Shown one piece after another: positions 238 to 37,470 of a DNA stretch of 46,057 nt. This DNA comes from Nanobdellota archaeon. Lineage in GTDB: Archaea > Nanobdellota > Nanobdellia > Pacearchaeales > GW2011-AR1. The position numbers and the translations under genes are program-made. Below the pieces are notes generated by a model that searched no databases, was not told where the DNA came from, and saw nothing but the letters and a program-made list of their open reading frames with translations. The stretch lies in assembly GCA_038045145.1 (NCBI GenBank), contig JBBSYQ010000006.1, positions 1 through 46,057 on the forward strand, given 5' to 3'. The first letter of the stretch is position 1. Each line of letters opens with the position of its first letter.

Positions 238-537
238 TTAATCGCTTATTGATTCTCCGTCAAATCCGATTTCCACGAGGAGGGATTTGATTCTCTTCCT
301 GTGGTCTCCTTGAAGTTCAATCGCGTTGTTTTTGTAAGTTCCGCCGCAGGCAAGCCTGTTTTTCAGCGTCTTTGCGATGTTCCACACATCAATTCCGCTC
401 TCAAACCCCGAGACAATAGTGTTGATTTTCCCGAATTTCTTCTTCTCGGTTGTTATCTTTATTTTTTGTGAACTTTTTATGATTTGTTCACATACACATG
501 CCTGCTTAGGCAGGCCGCACTTTGGACATATTTCCAT
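238..537 (-). CDS. sui1: translation initiation factor aIF1 / SUI1
   Basis: 99 aa with an N-terminal CPKCGLPKQACVC zinc knuckle followed by a SUI1 fold signature (KITTEKKKFGKINTIVSGF...LKNRLACGGTYKNNAIELQGDHR). Its position after L29 is common in archaea. Confidence 0.9.
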   Translation of the reverse strand: MEICPKCGLPKQACVCEQIIKSSQKIKITTEKKKFGKINTIVSGFESGIDVWNIAKTLKNRLACGGTYKNNAIELQGDHRKRIKSLLVEIGFDGESISD

Positions 538-538
538 G

Positions 539-715
539 TTATCTGTTGAGTGTGAGTATCATTGCTATGATTTTTTTTATTTCTCCTGTTCTTGAATTTT
601 TTGATCTTGACGAGTTTACTGACGATTTCACAAGTTCCATTTTAAGTTCTTTAAGTTTTGCTTCCCTTTCCTGCCTGCTCATCTTCATTATTTCCTTTGA
701 TTTTTTTGTCGCCAT
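539..715 (-). CDS. rpl29: 50S ribosomal protein uL29
   Basis: 58-aa ORF missed by the track: MATKKSKEIMKMSRQEREAKLKELKMELVKSSVNSSRSKNSRTGEIKKIIAMILTLNR. The ATG at 715 directly abuts the uS3 stop (716-718). Its TAA (539-541) lies 1 nt before the SUI1 ATG. The pattern is L29-like (EIRKMS..EL...L.ELK.EL...IKK.IA..LT). Confidence 0.8.
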   Translation of the reverse strand: MATKKSKEIMKMSRQEREAKLKELKMELVKSSVNSSRSKNSRTGEIKKIIAMILTLNR

Positions 716-1399
716 TTATTTCTTTCCTGATTTTGATTTTATTTTCTTTTGCGGTTTTGTTTCTTCTTTACTCCTTTCCGTGTTGTTTTTTATTTTTTCC
801 ATGACTCCTTCATCAAGGTATATCTTGTCTTTTAATATCGCATAAGGCGATAGTATTGCAACATTCACGCCGACGGTTCCGGGTTTTGTTTGCGCAATTG
901 CCTGCGCCCTGTCGACGACTTTCGCGCTGTCGCCGACTTTTATCATATAACCCTGTGCAAATCTCCACTGCTTTGCCCTCGCGCTCGGAAGTTTTCCGTT
1001 TAATCTTATTTCCGCCCCCAATGCTCCGGCACTCATTATCTTCTGCAGGGTTCTGTAAGCGATTATTTTAAATTTCAGCGGTCCGATATTTTCCAGCGAC
1101 GATGCAATTTCATCCGCCATTATTTGCGCATCAAATTCCGGATTTTTTATTTCATCGATGTCAACATGTGGATTTTCAAGTTTGAATTTATTTTTTAACA
1201 CGCTGGTTAATTCGGCAATTCTTTCCCCGCCCCTTCCGATTACAAGCCCGGGTTTGTTCGTGGATATGACTATCTTCTCCCCGACTGGAGTGTATTCTAT
1301 TCTGACCTTGCTTATTTTCCCTTTCCCAAGTGAAATTTTTATGTATTCCCTTATTGCGAATTCATCTTTCTTGAATTTTACGATATTTTTTTCTTCCAT
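716..1399 (-). CDS. rps3: 30S ribosomal protein uS3
   Basis: KH domain (KPGLVIGRGGERIAELT) plus the S3 C-terminal domain (GAEIRLNGKLPSARAKQWRFAQGYM). The ATG at 1399 has a GGAG 9 nt upstream, whereas the track start at 1429 is TTG. Lys-rich C-terminal tail. Confidence 0.93.
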   Translation of the reverse strand: MEEKNIVKFKKDEFAIREYIKISLGKGKISKVRIEYTPVGEKIVISTNKPGLVIGRGGERIAELTSVLKNKFKLENPHVDIDEIKNPEFDAQIMADEIASSLENIGPLKFKIIAYRTLQKIMSAGALGAEIRLNGKLPSARAKQWRFAQGYMIKVGDSAKVVDRAQAIAQTKPGTVGVNVAILSPYAILKDKIYLDEGVMEKIKNNTERSKEETKPQKKIKSKSGKK

Positions 1400-1463
1400 T
1401 ATGAAAAACTCCTGTTTTTTATTATGCAAAATATTGTCATTTTTGAAAAATTTTTTTCTTCCA

Positions 1464-2120
1464 TTAAATTTTAACCTTTGATTTTATTTTTTCTTTTCTT
1501 TCCATGGCGACAATTTTAACATGCGTTCTTTTCTTTCTTACTCTCCCGAATTTTCCAAAAGGTCTTGAAGCAATGTTTGAAACAGCTTCGCATATTATAG
1601 TATCATTAAGTCCGTTGACGCTTGAATTTGCCGAGAGTGTTTTTAGCAATTTGATAAAATGCTGCGATGTTTTTTTAGGATATCTTCCCGACATGACATT
1701 TCCCCTTTGATGGGGAATTTCCCCCCTCATCGGAACAACTCTTTTCTTTTTTATCACTTCCTCCAAATCCCTGATTGCATCCTCAATTTTTTTGTTTTTG
1801 ATGAACCTGCATACTGCAATAGCCTGCTTTGTTGAAACGGGAATGGAGTAGGCATTGACAACTGCATTTGTTTTTTTTGATTTCTCATCTTTTTTTGCGA
1901 TTTTTGTTTCTTGTGACGTGAACTTCTTGTTCGCGGAACTTTCTTTTTCTTCAATTTTCTCGTCGGACTTTATGTTTTCTTCTTTGTTTTCCTTTACCTT
2001 TTCTTCAATTTTTTCTTTTGCCTTTTCATCGGATTTTATTTTATCTTTTCTCTGCGCAACTTCATGCTTTTTCGCGGTTTTCATTCCCTTCTGTTCTGGA
2101 TTGTAATTTTTTTCTGTCAT
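1464..2120 (-). CDS. rpl22: 50S ribosomal protein uL22 with ~85-aa Lys/Glu-rich N-terminal extension
   Basis: The C-terminal ~130 aa match the uL22 pattern (VSTKQAIAVCRFIKNKKIEDAIRDLEEVI...VPMRG...HQRG...GRYPKK...). Residues 1-85 are a low-complexity K/E-rich stretch. Confidence 0.9.
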   Translation of the reverse strand: MTEKNYNPEQKGMKTAKKHEVAQRKDKIKSDEKAKEKIEEKVKENKEENIKSDEKIEEKESSANKKFTSQETKIAKKDEKSKKTNAVVNAYSIPVSTKQAIAVCRFIKNKKIEDAIRDLEEVIKKKRVVPMRGEIPHQRGNVMSGRYPKKTSQHFIKLLKTLSANSSVNGLNDTIICEAVSNIASRPFGKFGRVRKKRTHVKIVAMERKEKIKSKVKI

Positions 2121-2121
2121 T

Positions 2122-2463
2122 TTAAATTAAACTAGCTAAATGGGGATATTTAGTTCCATATGTGAAAAAAACTTTTGATGACAACACTCCTTTATCTGTT
2201 ATTGTTATGCATTTCCTGTAAAGATGATAACCTACAAAACAATCTTCTGTATTAGCATGCGGTCTGCAAAAATCAAACCCCTCATCTCCTGTTCCCTTCA
2301 ATCTCTCTCCAATAAAAATTGCAGGCCCGTAATACTCATTATGTTCATTAAACCCATTTATTTGTCCGCTTCCTAAACTAATTATAACAATGTCTCCTTC
2401 TTCAAGTAGTTCCATGTCTTTTTCATTTTCTAATTTTTTTATTTTAATTAAATCTGTTTTCAT
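2122..2463 (-). CDS. hypothetical 113-aa protein inserted between uS19 and uL22
   Basis: Its ATG at 2463 abuts the uS19 stop (2464-2466). Its stop at 2122-2124 lies 1 nt before the uL22 ATG (2120). The sequence is non-repetitive and globular-looking, and I recognise no family. Confidence 0.6.
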   Translation of the reverse strand: MKTDLIKIKKLENEKDMELLEEGDIVIISLGSGQINGFNEHNEYYGPAIFIGERLKGTGDEGFDFCRPHANTEDCFVGYHLYRKCITITDKGVLSSKVFFTYGTKYPHLASLI

Positions 2464-2880
2464 TTATTTCTTGGATTTTGATTTACTTCCTTTTGTCGCG
2501 CCCACTCCCGCCTTTCCGTGTTTTATTCTTCCTCTCGAAGGTGCAAATTCCCCGAATTTATGCCCGAGCATTTCAACTCTTACTTCAACAGGCACGAAAC
2601 TTTTTCCGTTATATACACTGATTTTCATTCCAACCATGTTTGGGACAATGAGAAAATCCCTGTTGTGGGTTTTTATCAATTTGTTCTTCTGTATTTTTGT
2701 CTTCGCTCTGTTGATAAAACTCTCAATTTCCTGAAATTGCCTGAGCAAAAATCTTCTCTGTCGCGACTTTAAATATTTTGCAAACTCACGAGTGTCAAGC
2801 TCTTTCAGCTCTTCAATTGTTTTTCCCCTGAATGTGAATTGTTTTTTCTTTGTTTCTTCAACAGATTTTATTTCAGCCAT
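2464..2880 (-). CDS. rps19: 30S ribosomal protein uS19
   Basis: FTFRGKTIEEL...NRDFLIVPNMVGMKISVYNGKSFVPVEVRVEMLGHKFGEFAPSR is a canonical archaeal S19 core. Confidence 0.95.
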   Translation of the reverse strand: MAEIKSVEETKKKQFTFRGKTIEELKELDTREFAKYLKSRQRRFLLRQFQEIESFINRAKTKIQKNKLIKTHNRDFLIVPNMVGMKISVYNGKSFVPVEVRVEMLGHKFGEFAPSRGRIKHGKAGVGATKGSKSKSKK

Positions 2881-2881
2881 T

Positions 2882-3580
2882 TTATCTTTTTCTCCTTCCT
2901 GTTCTTCTTGGTCTTAGGTGTCCGACTCTTCTTCCCGGCGGAGCATTTCTTTTTGCGATTTTGCTTTTTGGATTTTTGCCTCTTCCCGAGCCGAACGGAT
3001 GGTCAATTGCATTGACTTTAACTGCAGAGGTTCTCGGCCATAATTTACCCCTGGATTTTTTTATAAAATGTTGCTTCCCTGCTTTTACAATAGGTTTATC
3101 CAGTCTTCCCGCGCCTGCAATAATTCCGATAACAGCTCGGCAATTCTGGTTGAATTCTTTTTCTTTTTTCGACGGCATTAGCACAAAAACTTTCTCTCCC
3201 ACAACTTTGTTCACGACGGCGGAACTGCCGGCTGTTTTTATGAAAACTCCGCCGTCTCCTGGGCGTGATTCAACATTATAGATTCTTGTTTTTACAGGAA
3301 TGTCTTTCAATTTCAAAATATTGCCCCCTTTAATTTCTTTTTCAAAATTTATTTTTTGTCCTTCAATCATTCCGCTGAATGCAGGCATGAAAAAAATTCC
3401 GTCGCGGTATTTTATCTTTGCGATTGGCGCGGTGTGCCCTTTTGAGTTTATCAGATTTATAACTTCCCCTTCTCCGTTAAGTTCTCTTGGATATTTCAGC
3501 CTGTAAATGAACGCCCTTCTCCTGACTCTGTATGTCCCGCTTCCCTTCCCTCTTGCCTGTGAAATTATTCTTTTTGCCAT
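2882..3580 (-). CDS. rpl2: 50S ribosomal protein uL2
   Basis: GRRNAPPGRRVGH..., HPFGSGRGK and GDGGVFIKTAGSSA are uL2 hallmarks. Position in the operon fits. Confidence 0.95.
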   Translation of the reverse strand: MAKRIISQARGKGSGTYRVRRRAFIYRLKYPRELNGEGEVINLINSKGHTAPIAKIKYRDGIFFMPAFSGMIEGQKINFEKEIKGGNILKLKDIPVKTRIYNVESRPGDGGVFIKTAGSSAVVNKVVGEKVFVLMPSKKEKEFNQNCRAVIGIIAGAGRLDKPIVKAGKQHFIKKSRGKLWPRTSAVKVNAIDHPFGSGRGKNPKSKIAKRNAPPGRRVGHLRPRRTGRRKR

Positions 3581-3581
3581 T

Positions 3582-3821
3582 TTATATCATTCCCAATTTC
3601 GTCGCCACGTCGATGGCGGGAAATTCTTTTTTTAATTTGACATACGCATATTTTTTGTTTCCTCTGATGAGTGTCCTTACTCTTTCAACTTTAACTTCAA
3701 ATAATTCCTGAATTTCTTTTTTTATTTCTTCGCTTGTTTTTTCTTTTTCAGTTTTAAATGTCAAAACATTTTTGCTCTCTATAAGCATTACCGCTTTCTC
3801 GGTTGTTATTGGTTTTATCAT
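3582..3821 (-). CDS. rpl23: 50S ribosomal protein uL23
   Basis: 79 aa: IKPITTEKAVMLIESKNVLTFKTEKEKTSEEIKKEIQELFEVKVERVRTL... has the uL23 pattern and sits directly upstream of uL2. Confidence 0.9.
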   Translation of the reverse strand: MIKPITTEKAVMLIESKNVLTFKTEKEKTSEEIKKEIQELFEVKVERVRTLIRGNKKYAYVKLKKEFPAIDVATKLGMI

Positions 3822-4483
3822 TTTATCAACACCTCGGGAATTTCATGTTGTGAATATTCAGGAAAAAGATTTTCTCCAAACATCAGTCTGTAAAAACATT
3901 CTGCTGTAAGTTTGCAGTCTTCAAGCGCGTTGTGCGGTTTTCCATCGTGGACAACTTCTCTTCCTTTTAGTTCTATTCTCTCGTCGGGAATTCCGCAGAA
4001 TTTCAAAACATTTGAAAGATTCATGTTGCTTTCATAACTATTTGCATCTTTGCTTTGCTTGATAAAAAATTTATTATAAGTATCAAAATATTTTATTTGT
4101 GCAATTGTATGTGTATCAAATGCCCGATACTGAAATGTGCGTTTAAGGTTATACTTGTCTGCCTTTACCCATAAAAATCCAATGTCAAACTGGGGATTCT
4201 GGCACAAAAAAATTCTGAATTTCCTTTTTTCAATCCATCTAAAAAATATCTCAAGCATTTCTTTCTGTGATTGTTCCTTGGGATTTCTTAATTCGTCCTC
4301 GGTTTTTCCTGTAACTTTCAATGAGTTCTCATTAATTTCATCTTCATCGTCGATTCTTGAATCCTGTAAAAATTCTTCTTTGGTGTTTAAGTCAATTGCA
4401 CCTATCTGCCAGATTCCGCACTTTTCCATGCTCAAACCAGACGTTTCCAAATCAACAACAATCGGCAATAATGTTTTGTTCAT
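3818..4483 (-). CDS. DEDDh-family 3'-5' exonuclease (DnaQ/RNase T-like)
   Basis: Exo I is VVDLETSGL, Exo II is QNPQFDIGFLW and Exo III is HNALEDCKLTAECF (H-x4-D). It has ATGA overlaps with the upstream ORF62 (4480-4483) and the downstream uL23 (3818-3821). Confidence 0.82.
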   Translation of the reverse strand: MNKTLLPIVVDLETSGLSMEKCGIWQIGAIDLNTKEEFLQDSRIDDEDEINENSLKVTGKTEDELRNPKEQSQKEMLEIFFRWIEKRKFRIFLCQNPQFDIGFLWVKADKYNLKRTFQYRAFDTHTIAQIKYFDTYNKFFIKQSKDANSYESNMNLSNVLKFCGIPDERIELKGREVVHDGKPHNALEDCKLTAECFYRLMFGENLFPEYSQHEIPEVLIK

Positions 4484-4668
4484 ATTTCTTCTCCTGCTTG
4501 CATTTCAAGTCCGCTTATGATTGGAGCATAACTCTGGCACATTGTTGCATCTCTTTTATCATACTCATTTCCTGGAATAAATCCTTTGTCACATTTTCTT
4601 CTCGTTTCACATGTGTCTCTATAACTGCATTCTCCTAATTCTCGTTTTTCAGTTCCGTACTTGTTCAT
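4480..4668 (-). CDS. hypothetical 62-aa Cys-containing protein
   Basis: ATGA overlaps at both ends, with uL4 (4665-4668) and the exonuclease (4480-4483). Four Cys residues (C14, C20, C26, C44). Support comes only from translational-coupling geometry. Confidence 0.45.
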   Translation of the reverse strand: MNKYGTEKRELGECSYRDTCETRRKCDKGFIPGNEYDKRDATMCQSYAPIISGLEMQAGEEI

Positions 4669-5462
4669 TTTAATTTCTCCGCGAGATTTTTAATTGCATT
4701 TTCAGTGTAAACAACAAGTCTTCCCAGCCCGCCTTTAGCCAAATCATTCACGCCGAGATTTCCCGCATTTGCAACGTCAAAAATTTTCGTTTTCATTTTT
4801 TCATTTTTTCCTGTTACAATAAGCACTCCCGCGCTTTTTTTGTATCTTCTTCCTCTTGATTTTCCCTTTCCGCTTCTTATTTTTTTGTTTCTCTCTGAAA
4901 TTTCAGACAAGTTGCCGAGAATTTTTTTCACGCTCTCAATAAGTTGTTTTGTTCCTAATTCCGTTATTCCCGATTCAACTATAAACGGCAGCGATTTTAT
5001 TTCAGTATCTTTTAATCGCGCATATTTTTTTCTTATCATCTTCTCGTTTGCCGTCGCGCTTAGCGCAGATTTAAGCGCGGTTTCCATTTCTTTTTTGTTA
5101 ATTCTCTTTTTTTCAAGCATTGAAGAAATTTTCGGCGGATGTGCCCTCATTCCGCCTCTTGCAAAAGGAACTTCTGCCGCTTCCCAGTTAAACTGGCTTC
5201 CTTTTTGCGAAAATATTTTTCTCGGAACTCTTGAACTTCCTCTTCCGTAGCCGCTTCTCCATACATGCCTTGCATGGCTTAGTTTTCCTTTTGCAGAATG
5301 CTGTTTCCCTGCAACGGGAGAAGGCGAATATGGTTGTCTCCTTTTTTTCGTCTCAAGAACTTTTGCAACAATGTCCTCGCGGATTTTCTCTGAGAAAAAT
5401 TTCGGCAACTCAATGCTTCCTTTTTCCTTTCCGTCGATGCCGAAGATTTTTGTCTTTGTCAT
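4665..5462 (-). CDS. rpl4: 50S ribosomal protein uL4
   Basis: GRGSSRVPR, FARGGMRAHPPK and SGKGKSRGRRYK are archaeal L4 (L1e) hallmarks. Position between uL3 and uL23. Confidence 0.95.
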   Translation of the reverse strand: MTKTKIFGIDGKEKGSIELPKFFSEKIREDIVAKVLETKKRRQPYSPSPVAGKQHSAKGKLSHARHVWRSGYGRGSSRVPRKIFSQKGSQFNWEAAEVPFARGGMRAHPPKISSMLEKKRINKKEMETALKSALSATANEKMIRKKYARLKDTEIKSLPFIVESGITELGTKQLIESVKKILGNLSEISERNKKIRSGKGKSRGRRYKKSAGVLIVTGKNEKMKTKIFDVANAGNLGVNDLAKGGLGRLVVYTENAIKNLAEKLK

Positions 5463-5653
5463 ACTTTTACCTCAAGTCTCACCGACTTTAATGAATCATT
5501 TTCTTTAATCATATTTCTTATTTGCGCTTCATATTTACGAACCATTGTCAAAAATAAATCCTGGTTGGTTGACGGCTCTTCTTTGCCTTTTTCATAAAGC
5601 AGGTAACTTATGCCTTCTCTTTTAACCCTTGCGACAAATTCATAGTCTTTCAT
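5459..5653 (-). CDS. hypothetical 64-aa protein between uL3 and uL4
   Basis: ATGA overlaps with the uL3 stop (5650-5653) and the uL4 start (5459-5462). No family recognised. Confidence 0.5.
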   Translation of the reverse strand: MKDYEFVARVKREGISYLLYEKGKEEPSTNQDLFLTMVRKYEAQIRNMIKENDSLKSVRLEVKV

Positions 5654-6594
5654 CTCAACTCCACAAGTTCATAATTTTTCTTTACTTGTCTTCTCGTTTC
5701 CCTCAAAGGTTGGGTTGCAATAAGTTGCCTTTTCGCCGCTCCTTGCACGCTTCCGTTGACAATTATATAATCCGTTTTTATGTTTCCGTAATTTTTTATT
5801 CCCGTTATTTTTCCGTCGGCTTTTTTCACGCCGATTATTTTTCCGTTATAAATTGCTCTTGTGAACATTCCAAGCTGTCCTGCCATCGGCGTTCTGAAAG
5901 TTACTCTTGCAGGATGCCATGGTCCCAAGCTTCCAGGTCTTCTGACACCTTTCTCCGACTTGTGGCTTTTTAGTGTTATCCCGAATCTTTTTACAGGACC
6001 TTGAAGTCCTTTTCCTTTCGTGAGTCCGCGAAGGTCAATTAAATTTCCCTTTGCGAAAACATTTTCCACAGGAATTTCCTTGTTAAAATTTTCTTTGACA
6101 AAATTGAGTTTCTCCTCGACACTTCCTCTTAATCCTATTTCCGCAATGTCGGGAGTTTTTTTTATTCCTGTTTTTTTAACTTGCGAATAAGCAATGACTC
6201 TCACGTCGTCGTAATCTTTGACGTCTTCAATTTTCTTTTTGCTCTTCGGCAGTTTTAATTTTCTCTTCAGTTCCTTGTCAAGATTTTCAGCAATGACTTC
6301 ATTGGCAACTTTTCCGTTTTTGTAAAATCTTGCGGAGAAAATTTTTAACGGCGGGCATTCAAGAAGTGTTACAGGAATTATCGTAGTTCTTCCCTTTGTC
6401 ATCGAATCCGGCGTGTTGTCCTTGACATAAGCTGACTTCATTCCTACTTTGTAGCATATAAATCCCTTCAAACCAATCAAATTAGAATTATTAGGATTAA
6501 TTGCATTCCAGTTCACTCTAGGCAAGAATTTACTGGCTCTTTTCCTCGGCCAGAACTGCAGACTTCCTTTCCTTGGTGTTCTCTTCGTAGGCAT
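5650..6594 (-). CDS. rpl3: 50S ribosomal protein uL3
   Basis: MPTKRTPRKGSLQFWPRKRA is the canonical archaeal L3 N-terminus, found at ATG 6594. The track start at 6702 adds 36 implausible residues. FRTPMAGQLGMF and WHPARV motifs are present. The stop codon is TGA. Confidence 0.95.
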   Translation of the reverse strand: MPTKRTPRKGSLQFWPRKRASKFLPRVNWNAINPNNSNLIGLKGFICYKVGMKSAYVKDNTPDSMTKGRTTIIPVTLLECPPLKIFSARFYKNGKVANEVIAENLDKELKRKLKLPKSKKKIEDVKDYDDVRVIAYSQVKKTGIKKTPDIAEIGLRGSVEEKLNFVKENFNKEIPVENVFAKGNLIDLRGLTKGKGLQGPVKRFGITLKSHKSEKGVRRPGSLGPWHPARVTFRTPMAGQLGMFTRAIYNGKIIGVKKADGKITGIKNYGNIKTDYIIVNGSVQGAAKRQLIATQPLRETRRQVKKNYELVELR

Positions 6595-6730
6595 TTCTAA
6601 ATGATGCGGATAACATTTTATGTTAAGTTCCCTGGAATGAAATATGTAGAAAAAACAGGTTTTTAAAGATTTGCAGAAGAATGTATTGTAACATAAAAAC
6701 ATTTTTAAATTCCATTCCTGAAAAACTATT

Positions 6731-7171
6731 ATGCCTAAAAGGTCAGATGATCCTGAAGAGAAAGCGTATATGCGTGATGTGTATGAACGAAGTGGAAAAA
6801 GTCTTTCAAGAGCGGCAAGAATTTCTCAACTGGAAGGGAGGGGTTTTAGCATACCAACACTTCGTAAGTTATTGAGAGCGGAAGGAGCTTATACCCCTCA
6901 AAGACAAAGATACCCTCTTGGTTTTGATGAGAAGTATTTTAGACAAGTATTTGATGAACGCGGGGGAGATATTACAAGAATGGAGGGTTACAACGACGGC
7001 ATAAGTCCTTCTTTAAAAATTATCTATTTAAGATGCCTCACACTTAATTTGACACCAGTAAATGTGCCAAAAGAACTTCTCAATAAAATTAATGGGAAAG
7101 TTAGAGGAGAGCACAATGATTTTGCGGTGGATCCTAGTACTATTACTGCCGGTTCAAGGCACCATTATTAA
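6731..7171 (+). CDS. hypothetical protein, possible helix-turn-helix
   Basis: 146-aa ORF. GKSLSRAARISQLEGRGFSIPTLRKLL looks like an HTH segment. No family recognised. Confidence 0.45.
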   Translation: MPKRSDDPEEKAYMRDVYERSGKSLSRAARISQLEGRGFSIPTLRKLLRAEGAYTPQRQRYPLGFDEKYFRQVFDERGGDITRMEGYNDGISPSLKIIYLRCLTLNLTPVNVPKELLNKINGKVRGEHNDFAVDPSTITAGSRHHY

Positions 7172-7185
7172 TTTCTAATTTTTCT

Positions 7186-8178
7186 TCACTCCCACGCAGC
7201 ATAATAAATTCCCGTCTGATGTCCGCCGTAATACATAAGCCATTTGTTGTTTATCTTCATCAGCGTCGGGTCGCCTGGAGGATTTGTAGGAAAGAGGTCT
7301 GTTGAATCTGGTGAATTAGTGAAATCAAATTCAGAATCCGAAAAAACATTATTGTTAAAAATAACGTGATAAACCCCCTTATATCCCCAGAAATATAATC
7401 TCATTTCTCCGTCCCAGTTTACAAATTCAGGTCCGTCAAGCCATCCCTTAAACACGCTGTTTCTGCTGTCAACAGCCATGCCCTTTTTTTCAAAAGTCAA
7501 GCCGTCCTGCGAAGTCGCCCACATTAAGATATGAGTTTCGCTGTTCGGCACTTGCTCTGCAGAATACTTTTCATCTATCGCGCCGCCGTACACCATGACA
7601 TATTCGCTTCCGGTGTTTATCACCGTCGGCGCTACTACATTCACGAAATTTAATCCAAGATTATTATTCGCGTCTATTCTCGTTCCAGCTTCATCCTGCC
7701 ATGTCAATCCGTCGGAAGAAATCGCGCTTTTTATGACTCCTGCATTTTGAAAGTACATCCTGTATCTTCCGTCGGAAAGTTTTATCACAGACGGAAATGT
7801 TGAACTTTCCTTTCTTGTTCCAGATTCTATGTTCCATGTTATCCCGTCGGAAGAAACAGAGGAATACACTTGTCCGTTAAATCCTGCAACCTCAGGTTCA
7901 AGAGAGTAATACATTCTGTAATTTCCGTAGCCAATATCAACAACATCTGCGTCAGCGTATGTTCCTGAAATCGCTATTCCTTTATCTATCCATGCAGGAA
8001 CAATCTCTTCATTCCCGCTTTCTTCACCAACACCATTTCCATTTGCCGGTTCGTTTGGATTAACATTATTTTCTCCTGCAGAATTTTCATCTTGAAATTG
8101 TTTCGGAAGGTAAAAAACAAGGAGTAGAAAAACCGCAACTGCAATAATTCCTGCAACAATTATCACATTCTTTTTCAT
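7186..8178 (-). CDS. membrane-anchored/secreted BNR (Asp-box) beta-propeller protein, glycosidase-like
   Basis: N-terminal hydrophobic anchor (IIVAGIIAVAVFLLLVF). Three Asp-boxes are present: SSDGITW, SSDGLTW and SQDGLTF. Confidence 0.6.
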   Translation of the reverse strand: MKKNVIIVAGIIAVAVFLLLVFYLPKQFQDENSAGENNVNPNEPANGNGVGEESGNEEIVPAWIDKGIAISGTYADADVVDIGYGNYRMYYSLEPEVAGFNGQVYSSVSSDGITWNIESGTRKESSTFPSVIKLSDGRYRMYFQNAGVIKSAISSDGLTWQDEAGTRIDANNNLGLNFVNVVAPTVINTGSEYVMVYGGAIDEKYSAEQVPNSETHILMWATSQDGLTFEKKGMAVDSRNSVFKGWLDGPEFVNWDGEMRLYFWGYKGVYHVIFNNNVFSDSEFDFTNSPDSTDLFPTNPPGDPTLMKINNKWLMYYGGHQTGIYYAAWE

Positions 8179-8209
8179 ATCATTATCTGTGAAACATAAT
8201 ATTTAAACT

Positions 8210-10576: not shown

Positions 10577-10859
10577 TTTTTTTATTTCTTTAAATTAGTC
10601 CCACCCGCCCACCCTAAAAATTAACTGATTAATGTTAAATAGTAGGATTTTCTTTTAATTTAGATTATCAATGAATGAGCGACAGCGAGTTCGTAATCTC
10701 GCAAAATTCTCTTATAGCAAATCTTTTTAATTCTTGGAAATTAGGGATTTATGCGGAGTAAGCCAGTTTACTGAGAGATTAATTCTCTGCCCAAGTTTTA
10801 TTGGGCGCTTACTTCGAGAAAGCCTCTTTCCCAACAAGGGAAACGAGTGAACGCAGTGA

Positions 10860-11029
10860 GCCTCCGTCGCATAAGGGTATTGCACCGGTCTTGAGTTTGA
10901 TAATTCGTGGGAGTTAGCAGACTCTGACGGAAAATCCAAGATTTTCCGGTCTAGAGAAAAAGTAAAATAAAAAACGAACAAGTCAACCGGGCCTTTACAG
11001 GCTTCCAGGTTCGATTCCTGGCGGGGGCG
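10860..11029 (+). tRNA. tRNA-Ser(UGA) with 89-nt intron at canonical position 37/38
   Basis: Hand fold: acceptor GCCTCCG/CGGGGGC (one G-U pair), D arm GCA/TGC with a GGG loop, and anticodon stem CCGGT (10885-10889)/ACCGG (10986-10990). The anticodon loop is CT-TGA-G. A long variable arm (GCCT-TTAC-AGGC-TT) marks it as class II. T arm is CCAGG-TTCGATT-CCTGG and the discriminator is G. No CCA is encoded. Confidence 0.8.
10896..10984 (+). other. tRNA-Ser intron with bulge-helix-bulge splice motif
   Basis: A 4-bp central helix pairs CTTG (10890-10893) with CAAG (10979-10982). It is flanked by 3-nt bulges AG|T (10894-10896) and TC|A (10983-10985), which puts both cuts after the 2nd bulge nucleotide. 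The intron contains a perfect 8-bp hairpin CGGAAAAT/ATTTTCCG (10928-10948). Confidence 0.7.
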
Positions 11030-11037
11030 TTTTTTTT
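11030..11037 (+). terminator. T8 run directly after tRNA-Ser
   Basis: Eight consecutive T immediately 3' of the discriminator base. Oligo-T is the usual archaeal termination signal. Confidence 0.5.
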
Positions 11038-11539
11038 ATTCAAAATAGAAGTTAGGTGTGTCGAGTACGATTTCTTTTGCAAATTGAAGTAAAGTGCCGA
11101 GATTATGTCTTTCAAATTTTTTTGAAATTGTTATATGTGGATTAAATTCAGGATAAATTGTGGCTGGTTCTTCTTTGGAAAAATTTCCAAGAATTTTTCT
11201 TCCATATTCGTCTAAATTTGGCCAGACATGTCTTATTTGTCTCTCAATATCGGAAAGCAGCATTTTATTTATTGCTCTGAATGTTTCATTTTCATACCTC
11301 AAAACCAAACAACCTTCAAAAATATCAAAGAAATATGTTCTGAAATCCAATTCTATTGGTAATTTCTTTTTTAGTCTGTCTAAAAGTTCGCTATCAAAAA
11401 ACACAGGAATTCTCGCGGAAAAATAAACCGTTGAGTGAAAAATGTCTTTAGGATTTAAGATTAATCCTTGTCCTTTACAATATTCCAAAATATCTTCTCC
11501 ACTTCCTCTTTCAACCAAAAGTTCAACGACACTTTTCAT
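11036..11539 (-). CDS. 2H phosphoesterase superfamily protein (LigT / cyclic phosphodiesterase-like)
   Basis: Two H-x-T/S-x motifs about 100 aa apart: FHSTVYF and PHITISK. Size of 167 aa is typical. ATGA overlap with the upstream helicase (11536-11539). Confidence 0.65.
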   Translation of the reverse strand: MKSVVELLVERGSGEDILEYCKGQGLILNPKDIFHSTVYFSARIPVFFDSELLDRLKKKLPIELDFRTYFFDIFEGCLVLRYENETFRAINKMLLSDIERQIRHVWPNLDEYGRKILGNFSKEEPATIYPEFNPHITISKKFERHNLGTLLQFAKEIVLDTPNFYFE

Positions 11540-14911: not shown

Positions 14912-15537
14912 TTTGTTTTTATTTTTACAGGTTTACTCATCGTGAATTTTATTTCAAGATTTCTTATATTATCTTTTTCCTGCGGCAATGCTTTAAGCAT
15001 CGCGTTGTACACAGCGACGATATTTTCAATAATTTCCTCGTCTTTCATGCTTTGTTTTCCGACGGACATTTTTACGCTCGCTTCTTTCGTTCTTATTTTT
15101 ACGCTGTTGTTTATTTTGTTTTTTATTTCACTTATGCTTTTGTCATTGACATCTGTTAAAATTCCAAGCTGCGGCGACGGCATTTTTCCCGCAGGCCCGA
15201 GATATCTCCCGAAAGTTGTAGCAACATTTGCCATTAAATTCGCCGACGCGATGAAAAAATCAAATTTTTTAAGCAGTTTTCTTATTTCTTTTTTGTCGGA
15301 ATATTTTTTAAAATCGTCCTTTGTTATTGTTTCAACATCATTTCTCCTTGAATCTAAAAAAGCCGCTATTCTTTTGTCCTTGATTTTATGCGGCACGGAA
15401 ACAAAAATATTTACCTGATTTTTCTTAACATCAAATTTCTGCAGATTTAGGACTAAGTCTAAACTCTGGTCAAATTTTCTCGCTTTTTCTTTTCTTAATT
15501 CAGTCAAAGCTGACTTTAAGTTTTCTTCAAGTTCCAT
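14908..15537 (-). CDS. rpl1: 50S ribosomal protein uL1
   Basis: FDQSLDLVLNLQKFDVKKNQVNIFVSVPH... and GRYLGPAGKMPSPQLG are uL1 hallmarks. A GGAGG lies 7 nt upstream of the ATG. Confidence 0.92.
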   Translation of the reverse strand: MELEENLKSALTELRKEKARKFDQSLDLVLNLQKFDVKKNQVNIFVSVPHKIKDKRIAAFLDSRRNDVETITKDDFKKYSDKKEIRKLLKKFDFFIASANLMANVATTFGRYLGPAGKMPSPQLGILTDVNDKSISEIKNKINNSVKIRTKEASVKMSVGKQSMKDEEIIENIVAVYNAMLKALPQEKDNIRNLEIKFTMSKPVKIKTK

Positions 15538-15548
15538 TTAAATACCTC

Positions 15549-15594
15549 CTACATTACGCGTCGCAGACATAGAATCTATTCCGCAACGATGTAG
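15549..15594 (-). promoter_or_regulatory. structured, GC-enriched 5' leader of the uL1-uL10-P1 operon (candidate autoregulatory element)
   Basis: On the minus strand, CTACAT...ATGTAG forms an outer stem. Inside it are a GTTGC/GCGAC stem and an ATAG/CTAT stem. The 3' arm abuts the GGAGG Shine-Dalgarno sequence. Confidence 0.3.
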
Positions 15595-15690
15595 TTTATC
15601 GGTGCTTTTGAAAGAAAATTTGTATTTATAAAACTTTTCTCATATGTGAATTATAGCAATACTTATAAATTAATTTTATTTTCAGGATTC

Positions 15691-16041
15691 ATGGAACTTA
15701 TTGCATTGCTTTCATCGGGGGAGGGAACATGGGCGCAGGTTGCAGGACTGATAAAATTTGGGGAATGGGAAAACATTATTGTGCTCGGCGACGATTTTGC
15801 AAAGAAGTTTACTTCTGAAAAAAAAATTGAATTTATAAAAATAGATTTGGGAAAAAAAATTAAGGACCTGCGCGACGAGTTTATGGACAAGCTGAAGGGG
15901 AAAATCAGCGGCATGGAAGTTGCATTGTCTGTTGCAAGTGGCGACGGAAAAGAGCACATGGCTTTAATTTCCGCTCTGATAAATATTCCCGTAGGAATAA
16001 GATTTGCCGCACTGACAAAAGAAGGAATTATTGACTTGTAA
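15691..16041 (+). CDS. hypothetical alpha/beta protein (116 aa from ATG 15691)
   Basis: The track start at 15646 is GTG, only about 13 nt after TATA 15624-15633. The first ATG (MELIALLSSGEGTW...) is at 15691. No family recognised. Confidence 0.5.
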   Translation: MELIALLSSGEGTWAQVAGLIKFGEWENIIVLGDDFAKKFTSEKKIEFIKIDLGKKIKDLRDEFMDKLKGKISGMEVALSVASGDGKEHMALISALINIPVGIRFAALTKEGIIDL

Positions 16042-34692: not shown

Positions 34693-37470
34693 TTAAGCTG
34701 ATGAATTTGTTGTTTCTGTTACAAGCGTAGCGCTTGTCGCAGAAGTTCCTTTATACTTTGTTCCACCGTCTGTTGTTACAGCCTGTGTTCTTAAGTATTT
34801 TGCAGCATTTACAGTGTCATCTCTTTCGTAACCCGCAACAAGCAATGCAATCTTGCCTGTAGTGTACTTGTCAGCAAAGCTTTGTATCAGGAATTGTCCT
34901 GAACCAACGCCTGTCTGCTCTGTAAAGTCAGCACTACAATAAGCTCCTCCTAAAAGTGTAGCAGCAGCGCTGTTAATACAGCTTCCGCCAATAACAATTA
35001 AGTTCTTTGTGCTTACTGATGCAACTTCAGAGTCTGTTACAAGAACATCTCCAAGTGCAGTTACGCCTGCTGAACCAGTTGTTCCTGCAGTTACAGTCGC
35101 ATCGTTTTTAGCAACATACAATTGCGCATACACTTGTTCATCAGGATAACTTAATGTAGCAAGTGGTTGGTCTGAATCTCCAGAGTCAAGTGTCAATATG
35201 CTTCCCCACAAATCAGCAGCTTCTGTTACTTTGCTGTTACTTGATAGAGAAGTTCTCCATAGTGATGAAACATTGCTCCATGTATCTCCAGAACCTGTAG
35301 TATCTACTCCTAGTCCATCATCTCCAGTTCTACCTGTTTCAAGCAAAATGATGTTTGCATGGTATACGCTGTTATCGTCTTTTTCTTCCCATACAATCAA
35401 TGCTGATTGGTTAATCAAACCTCCTGTAACTGGGTCTGCAAGATAAATCATTGCTGGTTGACCTGCTGGCTCGCTTGTTGATGTTCCACCATTAGTCAAA
35501 TTATGGTTCGTAAATACAAATTTAAGTCCGCCTACGCTCCAGTTAAGCGTGTTGTTTTCCATAGTAGTGGCGTGATAACCGCTCGTATTAAGGTATCCAG
35601 TAGCTCCATCACGAGTTATGTTCCACATAGAGTTGTACTCTGCTATACTTCCAGGTGAAGTTTGAACTACTGTAGCACTTTCATATCCATCTCCGTCTGG
35701 AATTTTGATTTCTGTGATGTTGTATTGAATTACATTTCCAGCCCTTATTCCAGTGCTATTGAATAGCAATTCTGTTGGTTGATAAAATGCAACCTTTGCT
35801 CCTTTTGATGTTTGTATCGTTGGGAACAAAACTACAACTCCGTTTCCACTGCTATCTGGATAATCCAAATGAACTTGGTAGCTTTCTGAGGAAATGCCCG
35901 CAGCGCCATCTAAATAAACGCCGTAAGTTTTTCCACCTATTATAACGCTTCCAACTCCATCAGATGTCCAAATAGTTTTTGGAAGAGTTTCTCCTGACAT
36001 CACATCTGTGAATTCAACTTCATCGCCCGCAGTGTTACTTGAAATGTCTGATGAATCGTTCTTGGCATTTGCTAGTTTTAACAAATAACCTTCGTCTTCA
36101 TTTCCTACAACAACATAACTTTGACGAGTGATATTGCCCATTTCAGCTACTGTAAGATTTCTGTTGTCATCATCAATCATTAATTGAGGACCGCCTGTTA
36201 CACCCGGTCTAACATTCCCTACAATATCTTTAGTCCATTGGAATTCTTTTTCATTGCCTCTATATTCTTTGAATTTTACATTCATCTTATCATCACTGTT
36301 TGCAGTTATGGTAATGGCTTCTCTTGCTGTTGAATCTCTTGCGATATTCAATCCAGCAAAATTTACCTTGAATGTTCCGTAGAGAGGGTCAACAAAAGAT
36401 TCCCCTGCTTTGATAGCATCCATATCTGATTCTGGCGCATACACGCTTATAGTCAATGAACTCAAATTATTTGGGTTTCCAGTTTCAAAGTCAACTAATG
36501 TTCCATCAATGCTGGAATCGTCTTCTCCTGTTTTAACAGCACTGTTATCTTCCAGAGTTACTTTATCACTTCCGGCTACAATTGTTGCAGATAATTTTAA
36601 GTTTGTTTCATCTGCAGTTGTTACCGCAATTGTGATTCCGTTAATTTTCTTTGAAGCAGCTTCGTTAATTTCCTTACTATCGCTTTTTCCCGTACTATCT
36701 GTAACCCTTACACTTGCAGCACTGTCTGAAGCAGAAATTAATTCAATAGTATATGTTGCTCCTGCGACAGTTACTTCTGCTGTTGGTGCATCACTGCTTA
36801 AATCTAATTTTTTAGCACTTTTCAAGAGTACAATTGTATTAGTGTCAGTTGAAGAACTTATAGTAAAATCCATTCCAAATAACTTTATGTTTTGACCTTC
36901 TGAATCAGCATGGCTAAAGTTTACAGCTTTGCTAAATGTAGCAGTTGTGTTATATATGTAATTAGCTTGTGTCGTACTTGTTGTTAAAGCGTAGTTTGGG
37001 TCATCAGAAGTTGCAGGTTGCCTTTTAAAGGTAATTCTTGGATTTGAACCAATGTCAATTATTTGAGTCATTGAAGCATCTACATTTCCTGAAAAAGAAT
37101 CGTCCATTAATACAGTTGGGAGATTAGCTTTTGTTAATACGTTTGTTACTGTGTTCAAACTGTCATTAACATAAATCTTTGTTCCGCCTGTAAATAAAGC
37201 AGCAGCTTCTCCTGAAACACTTCCTCCAGTTGTTCCTGATGTTGTGCTCATATATGTCTGCAAGTTACCTTGTATGTTTCCTGCTTCAACAGCATCTAAT
37301 ATAGATACCCCTGAACCAGTTCCATATACAACAGCTACGCTTGCAACTCCTCCGGACACGAATGGTGCCGGATAGGTTGCAGCAGCAGCAACGCCTGCAG
37401 TCATACCAACCATCAATGCACTTGCTCCTATTGCTGATATTTTCTTAAAACTCTTTTTTAAATTAAACAT
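34693..37470 (-). CDS. candidate S-layer / major surface glycoprotein (925 aa)
   Basis: Signal peptide ...GVAAAATYP. Thr/Ser/Gly/Asn-rich with many N-x-S/T sequons and no TM anchor. Strong GGAGGT Shine-Dalgarno 8 nt upstream of the ATG (reverse complement of acctcc at 37485-37490). Visibly less AT-rich than its neighbours. Confidence 0.65.
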   Translation of the reverse strand: MFNLKKSFKKISAIGASALMVGMTAGVAAAATYPAPFVSGGVASVAVVYGTGSGVSILDAVEAGNIQGNLQTYMSTTSGTTGGSVSGEAAALFTGGTKIYVNDSLNTVTNVLTKANLPTVLMDDSFSGNVDASMTQIIDIGSNPRITFKRQPATSDDPNYALTTSTTQANYIYNTTATFSKAVNFSHADSEGQNIKLFGMDFTISSSTDTNTIVLLKSAKKLDLSSDAPTAEVTVAGATYTIELISASDSAASVRVTDSTGKSDSKEINEAASKKINGITIAVTTADETNLKLSATIVAGSDKVTLEDNSAVKTGEDDSSIDGTLVDFETGNPNNLSSLTISVYAPESDMDAIKAGESFVDPLYGTFKVNFAGLNIARDSTAREAITITANSDDKMNVKFKEYRGNEKEFQWTKDIVGNVRPGVTGGPQLMIDDDNRNLTVAEMGNITRQSYVVVGNEDEGYLLKLANAKNDSSDISSNTAGDEVEFTDVMSGETLPKTIWTSDGVGSVIIGGKTYGVYLDGAAGISSESYQVHLDYPDSSGNGVVVLFPTIQTSKGAKVAFYQPTELLFNSTGIRAGNVIQYNITEIKIPDGDGYESATVVQTSPGSIAEYNSMWNITRDGATGYLNTSGYHATTMENNTLNWSVGGLKFVFTNHNLTNGGTSTSEPAGQPAMIYLADPVTGGLINQSALIVWEEKDDNSVYHANIILLETGRTGDDGLGVDTTGSGDTWSNVSSLWRTSLSSNSKVTEAADLWGSILTLDSGDSDQPLATLSYPDEQVYAQLYVAKNDATVTAGTTGSAGVTALGDVLVTDSEVASVSTKNLIVIGGSCINSAAATLLGGAYCSADFTEQTGVGSGQFLIQSFADKYTTGKIALLVAGYERDDTVNAAKYLRTQAVTTDGGTKYKGTSATSATLVTETTNSSA

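Follow-up and report, generated by a model that had tools for sequence, protein, structure and literature searches.

The ribosomal protein operon discussed here belongs to a tiny groundwater archaeon of the Nanoarchaeota (DPANN, Pacearchaeota/Woesearchaeota type), and four of its genes are probably not parts of the ribosome but cargo inserted at junctions of the ribosomal protein supercluster. The inserts would be promoterless cassettes expressed through translational coupling. Two of them, ORF64 and ORF62, would be species-specific genes that were recently acquired or have diverged beyond recognition, and the exonuclease would be an old, conserved housekeeping nuclease. We hold this combined picture to be the likelier account, with real room for doubt. 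The genes lie in a window of 46,057 nucleotides, the whole stretch of DNA that was analysed, on the minus strand in the order uL3-ORF64-uL4-ORF62-exonuclease-uL23-uL2-uS19-ORF113-uL22-uS3-uL29-SUI1:

5650..6597, minus strand: uL3 (PF00297, 6e-58; archaeal L3 model TIGR03626, 6.5e-82)
5459..5653, minus strand: ORF64, orphan cassette of 64 aa filling the uL3/uL4 slot, ATGA at both ends
4665..5462, minus strand: uL4 (archaeal L4 model TIGR03672, 3e-55)
4480..4668, minus strand: ORF62, orphan cassette of 62 aa separating uL4 from the exonuclease gene, ATGA at both ends
4661..4668, minus strand: start of ORF62, ATGAACAA, read directly from the sequence
3818..4483, minus strand: predicted DEDDh 3'-5' exonuclease, 221 aa (PF00929 RNase_T, 3e-13)
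3582..3821, minus strand: uL23 (TIGR03636, 4e-22)
2882..3580, minus strand: uL2 (PF03947 Ribosomal_L2_C, on identical contig L021)
2464..2880, minus strand: uS19 (PF00203, 3.5e-25; NF003121, 2.7e-42)
2122..2463, minus strand: ORF113, a 113-aa acidic protein, predicted all-beta, between uS19 and uL22
1464..2120, minus strand: uL22 (NF003260, 2.8e-21, residues 81-209 only)
716..1399, minus strand: uS3 (KH_2 and Ribosomal_S3_C, on identical contig L021)
539..715, minus strand: uL29 (Ribosomal_L29, on identical contig L021)
238..537, minus strand: SUI1/aIF1-family gene (PF01253, 1.2e-19)

Pfam and NCBIfam identified uL3, uL4, uL23, uS19, uL22 and SUI1, while uL2, uS3 and uL29 were identified via precomputed Pfam matches on L021. 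The longest uL3 ORF reaches 6702, but homology begins near residue 38-42, so the ATG at 6597 is the likely start. The longest uS3 ORF reaches 1429, uL22 has a Lys/Glu-rich N-terminal extension of about 80 aa, and the uL2 of the window is 68-77% identical to the uL2 of relatives.

The arrangement is real. At least eight contigs, drawn from various runs and samples (among them Hainich groundwater ERZ1292645, ERR3858124 and several SRR326966xx runs), carry the identical gene order, and this excludes the assembly chimera that the first-pass annotation had named as a possible source of the insertions. The junctions it described are also there on the sequence. The window has five ATGA stop/start overlaps, all on the minus strand: uL3/ORF64 (5653-5650), ORF64/uL4 (5462-5459), uL4/ORF62 (4668-4665), ORF62/exonuclease (4483-4480) and exonuclease/uL23 (3821-3818). 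The ATG of ORF113 (2463) directly follows the uS19 TAA with a spacing of 0 nt, and its own TAA (2124-2122) is followed by the uL22 ATG at 2120, a spacing of +1 nt. PMC6728339 describes archaeal ATGA gene pairs as translationally coupled, and in PMC6728339 and PMC10666635 coupling requires an overlap or a very short spacer. The five overlaps and the 0/+1 nt spacings have this form, co-directional with ATGA or a few nucleotides between genes. Since the coupling geometry is real, it is reasonable to infer from the sequence that all four proteins are made in step with the ribosomal proteins. The probability of a given sense frame staying open is 0.011 for ORF64, 0.012 for ORF62 and 0.0003 for ORF113, their remaining two sense frames hold 3-14 stops each, and the codon-position composition of ORF64 and ORF62 is coding-like.

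The idea that this block is normally uninterrupted fails in this lineage. We surveyed about 60 related DPANN operons, using simple in-house scripts for gene calls, starts and family clustering, and more than half of them carry insertions. They hold roughly 100 other inserted ORFs (97 surveyed), mostly singletons and about 59% acidic, with a median pI of 6.1 against 10.3 for ribosomal proteins. Five or six of the 97 are unrecognised uL29 genes and about four are unrelated enzymes (a TudS-type desulfurase, a HAD/SerB-like phosphatase, a PNPOx and a nucleoside deoxyribosyltransferase); the remaining ORFs have no match in Pfam, NCBIfam, PHROGs or PADLOC, and marginal Cas matches (E ~4e-4) appear among the 97 in PADLOC. 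In relatives, the slots filled in the window are occupied by unrelated enzymes and orphans. In two relatives, L027 and L028, genes for TIR, HicA and Vsr proteins lie just upstream of the operon.

Turnover at these slots is quick. Among 14 pairs of relatives in which one ribosomal protein or more is 85% identical or better, 87 slots were empty in both members, 19 were filled in one member only, six held unrelated ORFs and three held homologues, or four once a mis-called ORF in L027 was corrected. Families also change place: F3 (161-173 aa, E 1e-35 to 1e-57) is found in uL3/uL4, uL2/uS19 and uL22/uS3, and F11 (E 2e-42) in uS17/uL14 and uL23/uL2. Identity within the uL3/uL4 family F2 drops to 22%, and some singletons could be orthologues diverged past detection, not independent insertions. 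Purifying selection acts on every inserted family for which dN/dS was measurable, the values being 0.13-0.38. In these genomes, conserved genes away from the operon often have small indels between them too, so the operon may just lack protection from insertion without being a favoured target.

In 82 occupied slots of the related operons, the start of the inserted ORF lies -4 to +2 from the upstream stop in 98% of cases and at exactly -4 or +1 in 84%, and both sides are tight in 84%; direct junctions between ribosomal protein genes are likewise dominated by -4 and +1. When filled and empty sites of close relatives are compared, a repeat of the downstream start region flanks the insert, in the examples 15 nt (TAAAATGGAAATAAA), 16 nt with two mismatches, 11 nt and 9 nt. 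An exact match of at least 12 nt through the ATG is present in 12.5% of 80 insertions versus 0.9% of controls (Mann-Whitney p=1e-5 for the start-region repeat). The window's own repeats are weak, with 8 nt at ORF62/exonuclease and 4-6 nt at the other insertions. ORF62 begins (4661-4668) with the same 8 nt that open the exonuclease gene (4476-4483), and GGAGAA precedes both starts (4675-4680 and 4489-4494, respectively). This repeat would fit the start-region duplication of the other insertions, but alone it is weak evidence. The analysis identified neither a recombinase nor a circular intermediate nor a donor element.

We propose that promoterless ORFs repeatedly enter the gene junctions of this operon in the lineage, and that the native junction, either an ATGA overlap or TAA-A-ATG, would be rebuilt at both ends of the insert, often by duplication of the downstream gene's start region. 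With the native junction recreated at both ends, termination-reinitiation at the end of the upstream cistron would probably drive translation of the inserted ORF, which would pass ribosomes on to the next ribosomal protein gene, as the geometry and published work on ATGA pairs suggest. Such an ORF probably must stay open, or translation of the downstream ribosomal protein would be uncoupled. The cargo would be varied and replaced quickly, and the window would contain three kinds of it: the exonuclease, which sits in uL4/uL23 in two clades and beside GINS51-like or ScpB genes elsewhere; ORF113, whose family appears to have moved between at least three junctions; and the pair ORF64 and ORF62.

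Searches of 5.8 billion (5.8e9) protein clusters returned only the query itself for ORF64 and for ORF62. Neither was found in the roughly 60 related operons, so the conservation in close relatives on which the first-pass proposal depended is absent for both. ORF64 (pI 9.0, net charge +2) has no match in Pfam, NCBIfam, PHROGs or PADLOC. Single-sequence AF2 predicts a beta-beta-alpha-beta fold with a best pLDDT of 89.5, the five models spanning 48.6-89.5. The model has no significant match among PDB folds; the top hit, itself non-significant, is to EsaG, a nuclease-immunity protein (E 0.3, probability 0.60). ORF62 has four Cys and a pI of 5.0; its SHOCT_2 score of 17.7 bits (E 0.004) is below the cutoff of 24, and phrog_2996 also matches that stretch, residues 26-54 (E 0.0018).

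ORF113 (pI 5.5) is a different case. It has five homologues at 60-73% identity, and at the profile level its family amounts to six clusters among 1.84 billion representatives; it is absent from the 20 GTDB relatives in which it was sought. Family members occupy uS19/uL22, uL2/uS19 and the position after uL18, and one lies outside the cluster between an amidase and a DHH protein; the supercluster holds 9 of 10 distinct contexts. This is far above random placement and could mean that the function is tied to ribosome production, but a preference for similar junction sequences could give the same pattern. In the comparison with the close relative L031, dN/dS is 0.38 for ORF113; uS19 has 0.075 and uS3 0.034. 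Its range of 0.16-0.38, a constraint 2-11 times less than that of its ribosomal protein neighbours, marks it as a real protein; judged by these sequence comparisons it is a fast-evolving family under relaxed purifying selection.

Of the four, the exonuclease alone is a widely conserved resident of the operon. It scores 51 bits against PF00929 (cutoff 24), and D11, E13, D100, H184 and D189, the last two forming H184-x4-D189, are invariant in an alignment of eight homologues, which gives it the exo motifs I-III (D, E, D, H-x4-D) of the DEDDh superfamily. Its sequence matches include the PolC exonuclease (2p1j, 5e-6), DnaQ (8h18, 2e-5) and RNase T (2f96, 1e-4). Orthology to DnaQ epsilon, RNase T, oligoribonuclease or the PolC exonuclease domain is rejected by NCBIfam equivalog scores far below cutoffs (RNase T 36 bits against 246, dnaQ 33 against 223), and PADLOC matches it only with a generic DEDDh model. 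The uL4/uL23 slot holds 47 of 91 family copies and is kept across two large clades; another 41 lie outside the cluster in contexts that include replication and segregation genes, coupled to a GINS51-like gene in seven loci and to ScpB in two. A second copy sits in uS17/uL14 in L017, and the operon is without the gene in 16 of 20 GTDB relatives. The protein has a pI of 5.3 and is under purifying selection (dN/dS 0.13, L027 versus L028). Retention in uL4/uL23 would also fit a translation-related role, e.g. rRNA 3' trimming.

The first-pass annotation offered the four proteins as lineage-specific ribosome-associated proteins, biogenesis factors or new ribosomal proteins, made in fixed proportion to the ribosomal proteins. 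We find this unlikely for the set. The coupling geometry at all junctions agrees with it, as do the placement of the ORF113 family, the hold of the exonuclease on uL4/uL23 with its low dN/dS, and the translation and RNA-processing genes that reside in archaeal clusters, of which SUI1 is present here. However, ORF64 and ORF62 lack any homologue, ORF113 is missing from most relatives and varies in slot, the exonuclease is missing from the operon in most GTDB relatives, and lineage-wide conservation, one mark of a ribosomal protein, is thus found for none of the four. Nor is the basic, RNA-binding composition of such proteins, which is a tendency and not a strict rule: with pI values of 5.0-5.5, ORF62, the exonuclease and ORF113 count as acidic, against 9.6-11.3 for the ribosomal proteins of the window, and ORF64 has a pI of 9.0. 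Slot occupancy differs between close relatives. Because copies of the exonuclease sit outside the cluster, some coupled to GINS51-like and ScpB genes, and the same slots elsewhere hold unrelated enzymes and orphans, position in this operon by itself does not indicate ribosomal function in this lineage. The proposal therefore falls away for ORF64 and ORF62, and a ribosome link is possible for ORF113 and the exonuclease only.

A slightly less probable suggestion, also on the unlikely side, is that ORF64 and ORF62 are relays with functionless products, whose frames stay open only because an early stop codon would sever coupling to the ribosomal protein genes downstream. Both are orphans that fill their gaps exactly with ATGA at each end, the inserted ORFs as a group change rapidly, most of them being singletons, and coupling needs an overlap or very short spacer according to PMC6728339 and PMC10666635. 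Against this stand the compact and confident best model of ORF64 (although the five models disagree), the coding-like composition of both frames, and the purifying selection on all measurable inserted families. We think it quite improbable that the inserts are selfish or conflict modules (toxin-antitoxin, anti-defence or symbiosis effectors) exploiting the strongest and most indispensable transcription unit, where expression is ensured and deletion is harder. Fast turnover, patchy distribution, slot changes, small size, the non-significant EsaG match and the TIR, HicA and Vsr genes of L027 and L028 are what such modules might leave. But the four window proteins and the 97 surveyed ORFs have no meaningful PADLOC or PHROGs match, viral contigs yielded no relatives of ORF113 or F3, and there are no paired toxin/antitoxin architectures. 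ORF64, ORF62 and ORF113 match no known anti-phage defence or toxin-antitoxin family in PADLOC.

Inserted cargo is the reading we prefer, and it can be set beside known systems. In archaeal ribosomal protein clusters, SUI1/aIF1 and Rpp29, an RNase P subunit, lie between uL29 and uS17, and the end of the spc cluster carries adenylate kinase and SecY. These too are non-ribosomal genes within a ribosomal protein transcription unit, and the SUI1 of the window, a non-ribosomal resident found between uL29 and uS17 in all relatives with the stretch assembled, is exactly in such a position. The known residents are ancient, keep a single slot throughout entire phyla and serve translation or RNA processing, whereas the ORFs here are mostly orphans, differ between close relatives and change slot. 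The exonuclease shares the full catalytic set of the DEDDh (DnaQ/RNase T) superfamily, which includes PolC/epsilon proofreading domains, RNase T and oligoribonuclease. Unlike those named enzymes, it is a stand-alone protein of 200-230 aa with a conserved C-terminal tail (consensus KNLFPEYSKYKIPEVL), and its genomic partners alternate between ribosomal protein genes, GINS51-like genes and ScpB.

Phage morons and integron cassettes are also comparable, being small, varied, often of unknown function and patchily distributed between conserved syntenic genes; integron cassettes also lack a promoter and rely on a resident one. A moron carries its own promoter and terminator, but the ORFs here abut or overlap both neighbours, so there is no room for a promoter, a terminator or an attC-like site. 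Two further differences are that the repeat flanking the inserts comes from the coding start region of the host gene downstream, and that the host locus is a cellular ribosomal protein operon. We therefore reject an integron-type cassette (no room for a non-coding site, no integrase among the annotated neighbours) and a phage moron (seamless -4/+1 junctions, a cellular operon, no relatives of ORF113 or F3 in viral contigs). The overlapping coupled pairs (ATGA/TGATG) treated in PMC6728339 resemble the five -4 junctions of the window and the mostly -4/+1 junctions of related operons. The pairs described there are resident genes, often subunits of one complex, whereas here the same geometry recurs around newly inserted, unrelated genes.

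The block from uL3 to uS3 is a textbook case of a gene order that is frozen, and phylogenies of uncultivated archaea routinely use its genes as markers. In the window the operon runs along the minus strand at 238-6702 in the order uL3, ORF64, uL4, ORF62, exonuclease, uL23, uL2, uS19, ORF113, uL22, uS3, uL29, SUI1, so that four of its genes (ORF64, ORF62, the exonuclease and ORF113) are non-ribosomal.

Features of the window
6598-6702, minus: 35 extra N-terminal codons of the longest uL3 ORF (MFLCYNTFFCKSLK...), outside the L3 model matches
5653-5650, minus: ATGA stop/start overlap, uL3/ORF64, read from the sequence
5462-5459, minus: the same, ORF64/uL4
4668-4665, minus: the same, uL4/ORF62
4483-4480, minus: the same, ORF62/exonuclease
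3821-3818, minus: the same, exonuclease/uL23
1880-2120, minus: Lys/Glu-rich N-terminal extension of uL22, ~80 aa; archaeal uL22 models match only from residue 80-90
238-537, minus: SUI1/aIF1-family gene, 3' of uL29 and 5' of uS17
34693-37470, minus: 925-aa ORF with no Pfam match on record, in a mostly unannotated neighbourhood

Every junction listed by the first-pass annotation is borne out when the sequence is read. There are five ATGA overlaps, and ORF113 starts immediately 3' of the uS19 TAA and ends 1 nt short of the uL22 ATG. ORF64, uL4, ORF62, the exonuclease and uL23 are each preceded by a GGAG or GAGG motif 7-11 nt 5' of the start codon. The true uL3 start is likely the ATG at 6597 (MPTKRTPRKGS). 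The contig (46 kb, from a 'Nanoarchaeota archaeon' MAG, with locus tags AABX28_00395, 00420 and 00430) is not alone in its arrangement; at least 8 contigs, assembled independently from several sequencing runs (Hainich groundwater included), share its gene order, so an assembly chimera is ruled out. Off-frame stops occur at 0.069 per codon in the A-rich coding strand of the operon, which puts the chance of a given frame staying open at ~0.011 for ORF64, ~0.012 for ORF62 and 0.0003 for ORF113. Each of the two remaining sense frames of these three ORFs holds 3-14 stops. An Rfam scan of the window finds only two tRNAs and no RNA element within the operon.

Some smaller observations belong here. 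The SUI1/aIF1 gene sits between uL29 and uS17 in every related operon covering that stretch, and no other gene was detected in the interval there. The same organism has a fifth inserted ORF past the window's left end, 84 aa long and without a Pfam match, in uL14/uL24 (6207-6461 of L021, a contig identical to the window's operon region). The 925-aa ORF has as a neighbour a 649-aa protein with a faint CARDB match.

The first-pass annotation took this block to be normally uninterrupted. That does not describe this lineage. We surveyed ~60 related operons anchored by tblastn and collected every plus-strand ORF filling a gap between anchor genes, taking as start the first ATG after a stop (our own rule) and clustering with phmmer in a small database. 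The uS19/uL22 'gaps' were left out because most of them are uL22's N-terminal extension, which in relatives varies in length or is absent. The survey returned ~110 inserted ORFs, spread over almost all slots, uL3/uL4 through eL19/uL18, a slot being the junction between two neighbouring ribosomal protein genes. They fall into 75 singletons and 11 small families; identity goes down to 22% within family F2, and some singletons may be orthologues diverged past detection. Among the 97 that are at least 50 aa long, 5-6 are unrecognised uL29 genes and ~4 are unrelated enzymes (a TudS-type 2-thiouracil desulfurase, a HAD/SerB-like phosphatase, a PNPOx-fold protein and a nucleoside 2-deoxyribosyltransferase), and the remainder match nothing in four libraries of known, phage and defence families. 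The inserted ORFs have a median pI of 6.1 and 59% are acidic, against a pI of at least 9.5 for ribosomal proteins.

The same family can occupy different slots. F3 (161-173 aa, E 1e-35 to 1e-57) is found twice in uL3/uL4, once in uL2/uS19 and once in uL22/uS3. F11 (E 2e-42) is found in uS17/uL14 and uL23/uL2, and F2, F4 and F5 occupy two slots each with weaker E-values. We then compared 14 pairs of relatives that are at least 85% identical in one or more ribosomal proteins. Their slots were empty in both genomes in 87 cases and filled in one genome only in 19; where both were filled, 6 held unrelated ORFs and 3 held homologues (4 with one mis-called ORF corrected). These counts in close pairs mean that slot occupancy changes much faster than the ribosomal proteins diverge. 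The operon is not established as a preferred target, since the non-ribosomal flanks of close pairs have similar numbers of small indels; the claim is limited to the operon not being protected from insertion.

L012 (1741-2043) and L019 (9249-9575), two relatives' loci with uL23 97% and uL2 91% identical, fill the uL23/uL2 slot with ORFs that are unrelated to each other (100 and 108 aa), and this looks like replacement, not divergence. Between loci L027 and L028 the ribosomal protein genes are 92-99% identical (dS 0.3-0.4), in contrast to 65-77% (dS 1.0-1.5) for the inserted genes (exonuclease, ORF113 homologue, F2 and F9). Either codon bias lowers dS in the ribosomal protein genes, or the history of the inserted genes is a different one, older or involving exchange. 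Directly 5' of uL3 these two loci carry genes of defence or mobile type: a TIR-domain protein and a HicA toxin in L027 (2612-4207), and a Vsr endonuclease in L028 (151-498).

The inserts are seamless. Across the 82 slots that are occupied, the inserted ORF begins -4 to +2 from the upstream stop in 98% of cases and at exactly -4 or +1 in 84%; the fit is tight on both sides in 84%. The same two distances, -4 (ATGA) and +1 (TAA-A-ATG), dominate among 566 direct ribosomal protein junctions. When filled and empty sites of close relatives are aligned, a direct repeat bounds the insert, and it is a copy of the downstream start region.

Start-region repeats at inserts in relatives' loci
L006, uL2/uS19: TAAAATGGAAATAAA, 15 nt
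L045, uL23/uL2: 16 nt, two mismatches
L028, uL23/uL2: ATATAAAATGG, 11 nt
L006, uL3/uL4: AAAATGAAA, 9 nt

For each of 80 inserted ORFs we set the start region against that of the gene that follows, using all other anchor-gene starts of the same locus as the control. An exact match through the ATG reaches 12 nt or more in 12.5% of inserts (0.9% of controls) and 10 nt or more in 20% (5.5% of controls; Mann-Whitney p=1e-5). In the window itself the signal is weak. The starts of ORF62 and the exonuclease have in common ATGAACAA and a 5' GGAGAA, and other pairs share just 4-6 nt.

ORF64 and ORF62 have no match in Pfam, NCBIfam, PHROGs or PADLOC, save a sub-threshold SHOCT-like one for ORF62, and among 5.8 billion protein clusters they have no relative but themselves. 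A uL4-based scan of GTDB species representatives gave 20 Pacearchaeota/Woesearchaeota-type loci (uL4 identity 61-67%), and neither these two nor ORF113 is found in any of them. Duplication of neighbouring sequence finds no support as the origin of these three ORFs, which are without nucleotide or protein similarity elsewhere in the window. A single-sequence AlphaFold prediction gives ORF64 a beta-beta-alpha-beta unit with a best pLDDT of 89.5, its five models disagreeing (48.6 to 89.5), and this fold has no significant match in the PDB (best EsaG, E 0.3). Membership of ORF64 in F2, a uL3/uL4-slot family, was rejected at this sensitivity (hhalign probability 0.3%). The uL3/uL4 junctions left empty in relatives are mostly ATGA overlaps themselves, so ORF64 has occupied what was natively a coupled junction and has restored another where it ends. 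ORF64 and ORF62 are species-specific, and probably cargo.

ORF113 is different in that it has a family. Five homologues are 60-73% identical to it, and a profile search of 1.84 billion representative proteins returned six clusters only. Libraries of known, phage and defence families hold nothing like it, and its AlphaFold model is all-beta, weak (pLDDT 64.5) and matched by no known fold in the PDB, with nothing better than E 0.37. It is 72-75% identical to its counterpart in the close relative L031, where uS19 is 91-94% and uS3 96% identical. The dN/dS between the two is 0.38 for ORF113 at an unsaturated dS of 0.39 (uS19 0.075, uS3 0.034), so ORF113 is a real gene.

Contexts of the ORF113 family, by locus
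Window, L031, L119-121, L122: at uS19/uL22
L027, L028-30, L123: at uL2/uS19
L116: overlapping the end of uL18
L117, L118: between an amidase and a DHH-family gene

In an unbiased search, 9 of the 10 distinct contexts lie in the ribosomal protein supercluster. ORF113 would be cargo at the level of a family, moved at least twice. Among IMG/VR viral contigs there are no relatives of ORF113 or F3.

The exonuclease, 221 aa long, is a DEDDh enzyme (PF00929) with D11, E13, D100, H184 and D189 invariant. It was rejected as an orthologue of any named enzyme, with all NCBIfam equivalog scores far under the cutoff; among solved structures it comes nearest to the PolC exonuclease domain, DnaQ and RNase T (E 5e-6 to 1e-4), and IMG/VR gave only distant matches (25-40% identity). 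It fills uL4/uL23 in 4 of the 20 GTDB loci, and one locus, L017, has a second copy in uS17/uL14. The two L017 copies (10789-11430 in uL4/uL23 and 15224-15850 in uS17/uL14, in one supercluster) pair with each other in the tree as nearest relatives. Scanning metagenomes with an alignment of the exonuclease added 80 loci for a total of 91 copies: 47 in uL4/uL23, 41 elsewhere, 1 in uS17/uL14 and 2 with unreadable context. In the tree the slot copies fall into two clades, and the branches of the free copies lie between these. This distribution and the tree point to a conserved DPANN housekeeping nuclease, and the copy in the window is probably old, conserved cargo.

Free copies keep other company. 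In seven loci (L047, L059, L062, L071, L090, L097 and L100, about 6998-8190 in each) an overlapping or adjoining gene with a Gins51 C-terminal domain lies 3' of the exonuclease. The Gins51-type gene is ~185 aa, the overlap is 4-14 nt in five of the seven and the spacing 5-14 nt in the other two; most of the seven also have a phosphoglycerate-mutase-like gene 5' of the exonuclease. ScpB lies 5' of a free copy in two loci (L091 and L109), overlapping it in one. These neighbours may indicate a replisome-associated role. Depending on the lineage, the exonuclease thus adjoins ribosomal protein genes or genes of replication or segregation. Context does not decide between a role on RNA and one on DNA.

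All these observations are most simply explained if the ribosomal protein supercluster of these archaea takes up promoterless ORFs at coupled junctions. Where the start region is duplicated in the process, the insertion would create a new cistron, which would inherit the resident gene's Shine-Dalgarno sequence and start while the resident gene gains a fresh copy of both. The inserted cistron could then be expressed by termination-reinitiation, which published work demonstrates for ATGA pairs in archaea (PMC6728339). Candidate routes of movement are short-repeat recombination, homologous recombination via conserved flanks, or template switching. We tentatively go further, to a proposal that we think has a real chance of being right but would not yet bet on: Pacearchaeota/Woesearchaeota-type Nanoarchaeota may harbour a previously undescribed mobile promoterless ORF cassette that integrates at coupled ribosomal protein junctions by duplicating the downstream start region, yields a seamless cistron expressed by termination-reinitiation, and hops between junctions and genomes, perhaps by being excised and re-integrated via the short repeat. 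The window's ORF64, ORF62 and ORF113 would then count as cassettes of this kind, and its exonuclease as one domesticated long ago.

The first-pass annotation had instead put the inserted proteins forward as candidates for lineage-specific ribosome-associated or biogenesis factors, or for new ribosomal proteins. The coupling geometry behind that idea stands. As ribosomal proteins ORF64 and ORF62 are unsupported, having no homologues in 5.8 billion clusters and being absent from the GTDB relatives. The weight of the idea falls mostly on ORF113 and the exonuclease, which may have a ribosomal function. The near-confinement of the ORF113 family to the supercluster and the one slot that the exonuclease keeps across two large clades speak for it, and both placements also fit a dosage that tracks ribosome production, as for a ribosomal protein chaperone or an rRNA 3' trimming enzyme. 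However, the ORF113 family is limited to a handful of genomes, both proteins are acidic, and relatives of the exonuclease adjoin GINS51-like or ScpB genes. Overall we consider ribosome factors unlikely. A live alternative is that ORF64 and ORF62 serve purely as relays whose frames stay open solely to preserve coupling, but every inserted family with a measurable dN/dS is under purifying selection (0.13-0.38).

We believe the uptake of ORFs at coupled junctions matters for how these genomes are read. In one DPANN lineage the block is riddled with fast-turnover, seamlessly coupled ORFs, and guilt-by-association prediction of function from position in the ribosomal protein operon is unusable there. 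There is also a testable model, in which promoter-poor, reduced genomes express acquired or newborn genes via insertion at coupled junctions with start-site duplication. If the proposal of a mobile cassette is true, the most conserved operon in biology would be a platform from which ultra-small symbiotic archaea express genes that they gain. Two candidates merit experiments: the ORF113 family, nearly confined to ribosomal protein junctions, and the exonuclease, alternating between the operon and GINS51-like or ScpB neighbourhoods. A literature search, mostly without subscription journals, found no description of insertions in DPANN ribosomal protein operons, and a 2026 preprint on complete Nanobdellota genomes does not mention them. 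A conserved operon that houses gene cassettes and a DEDDh nuclease is a variation on a known kind; the lineage-wide pattern of insertion is undescribed in the searchable literature and is worth following up.
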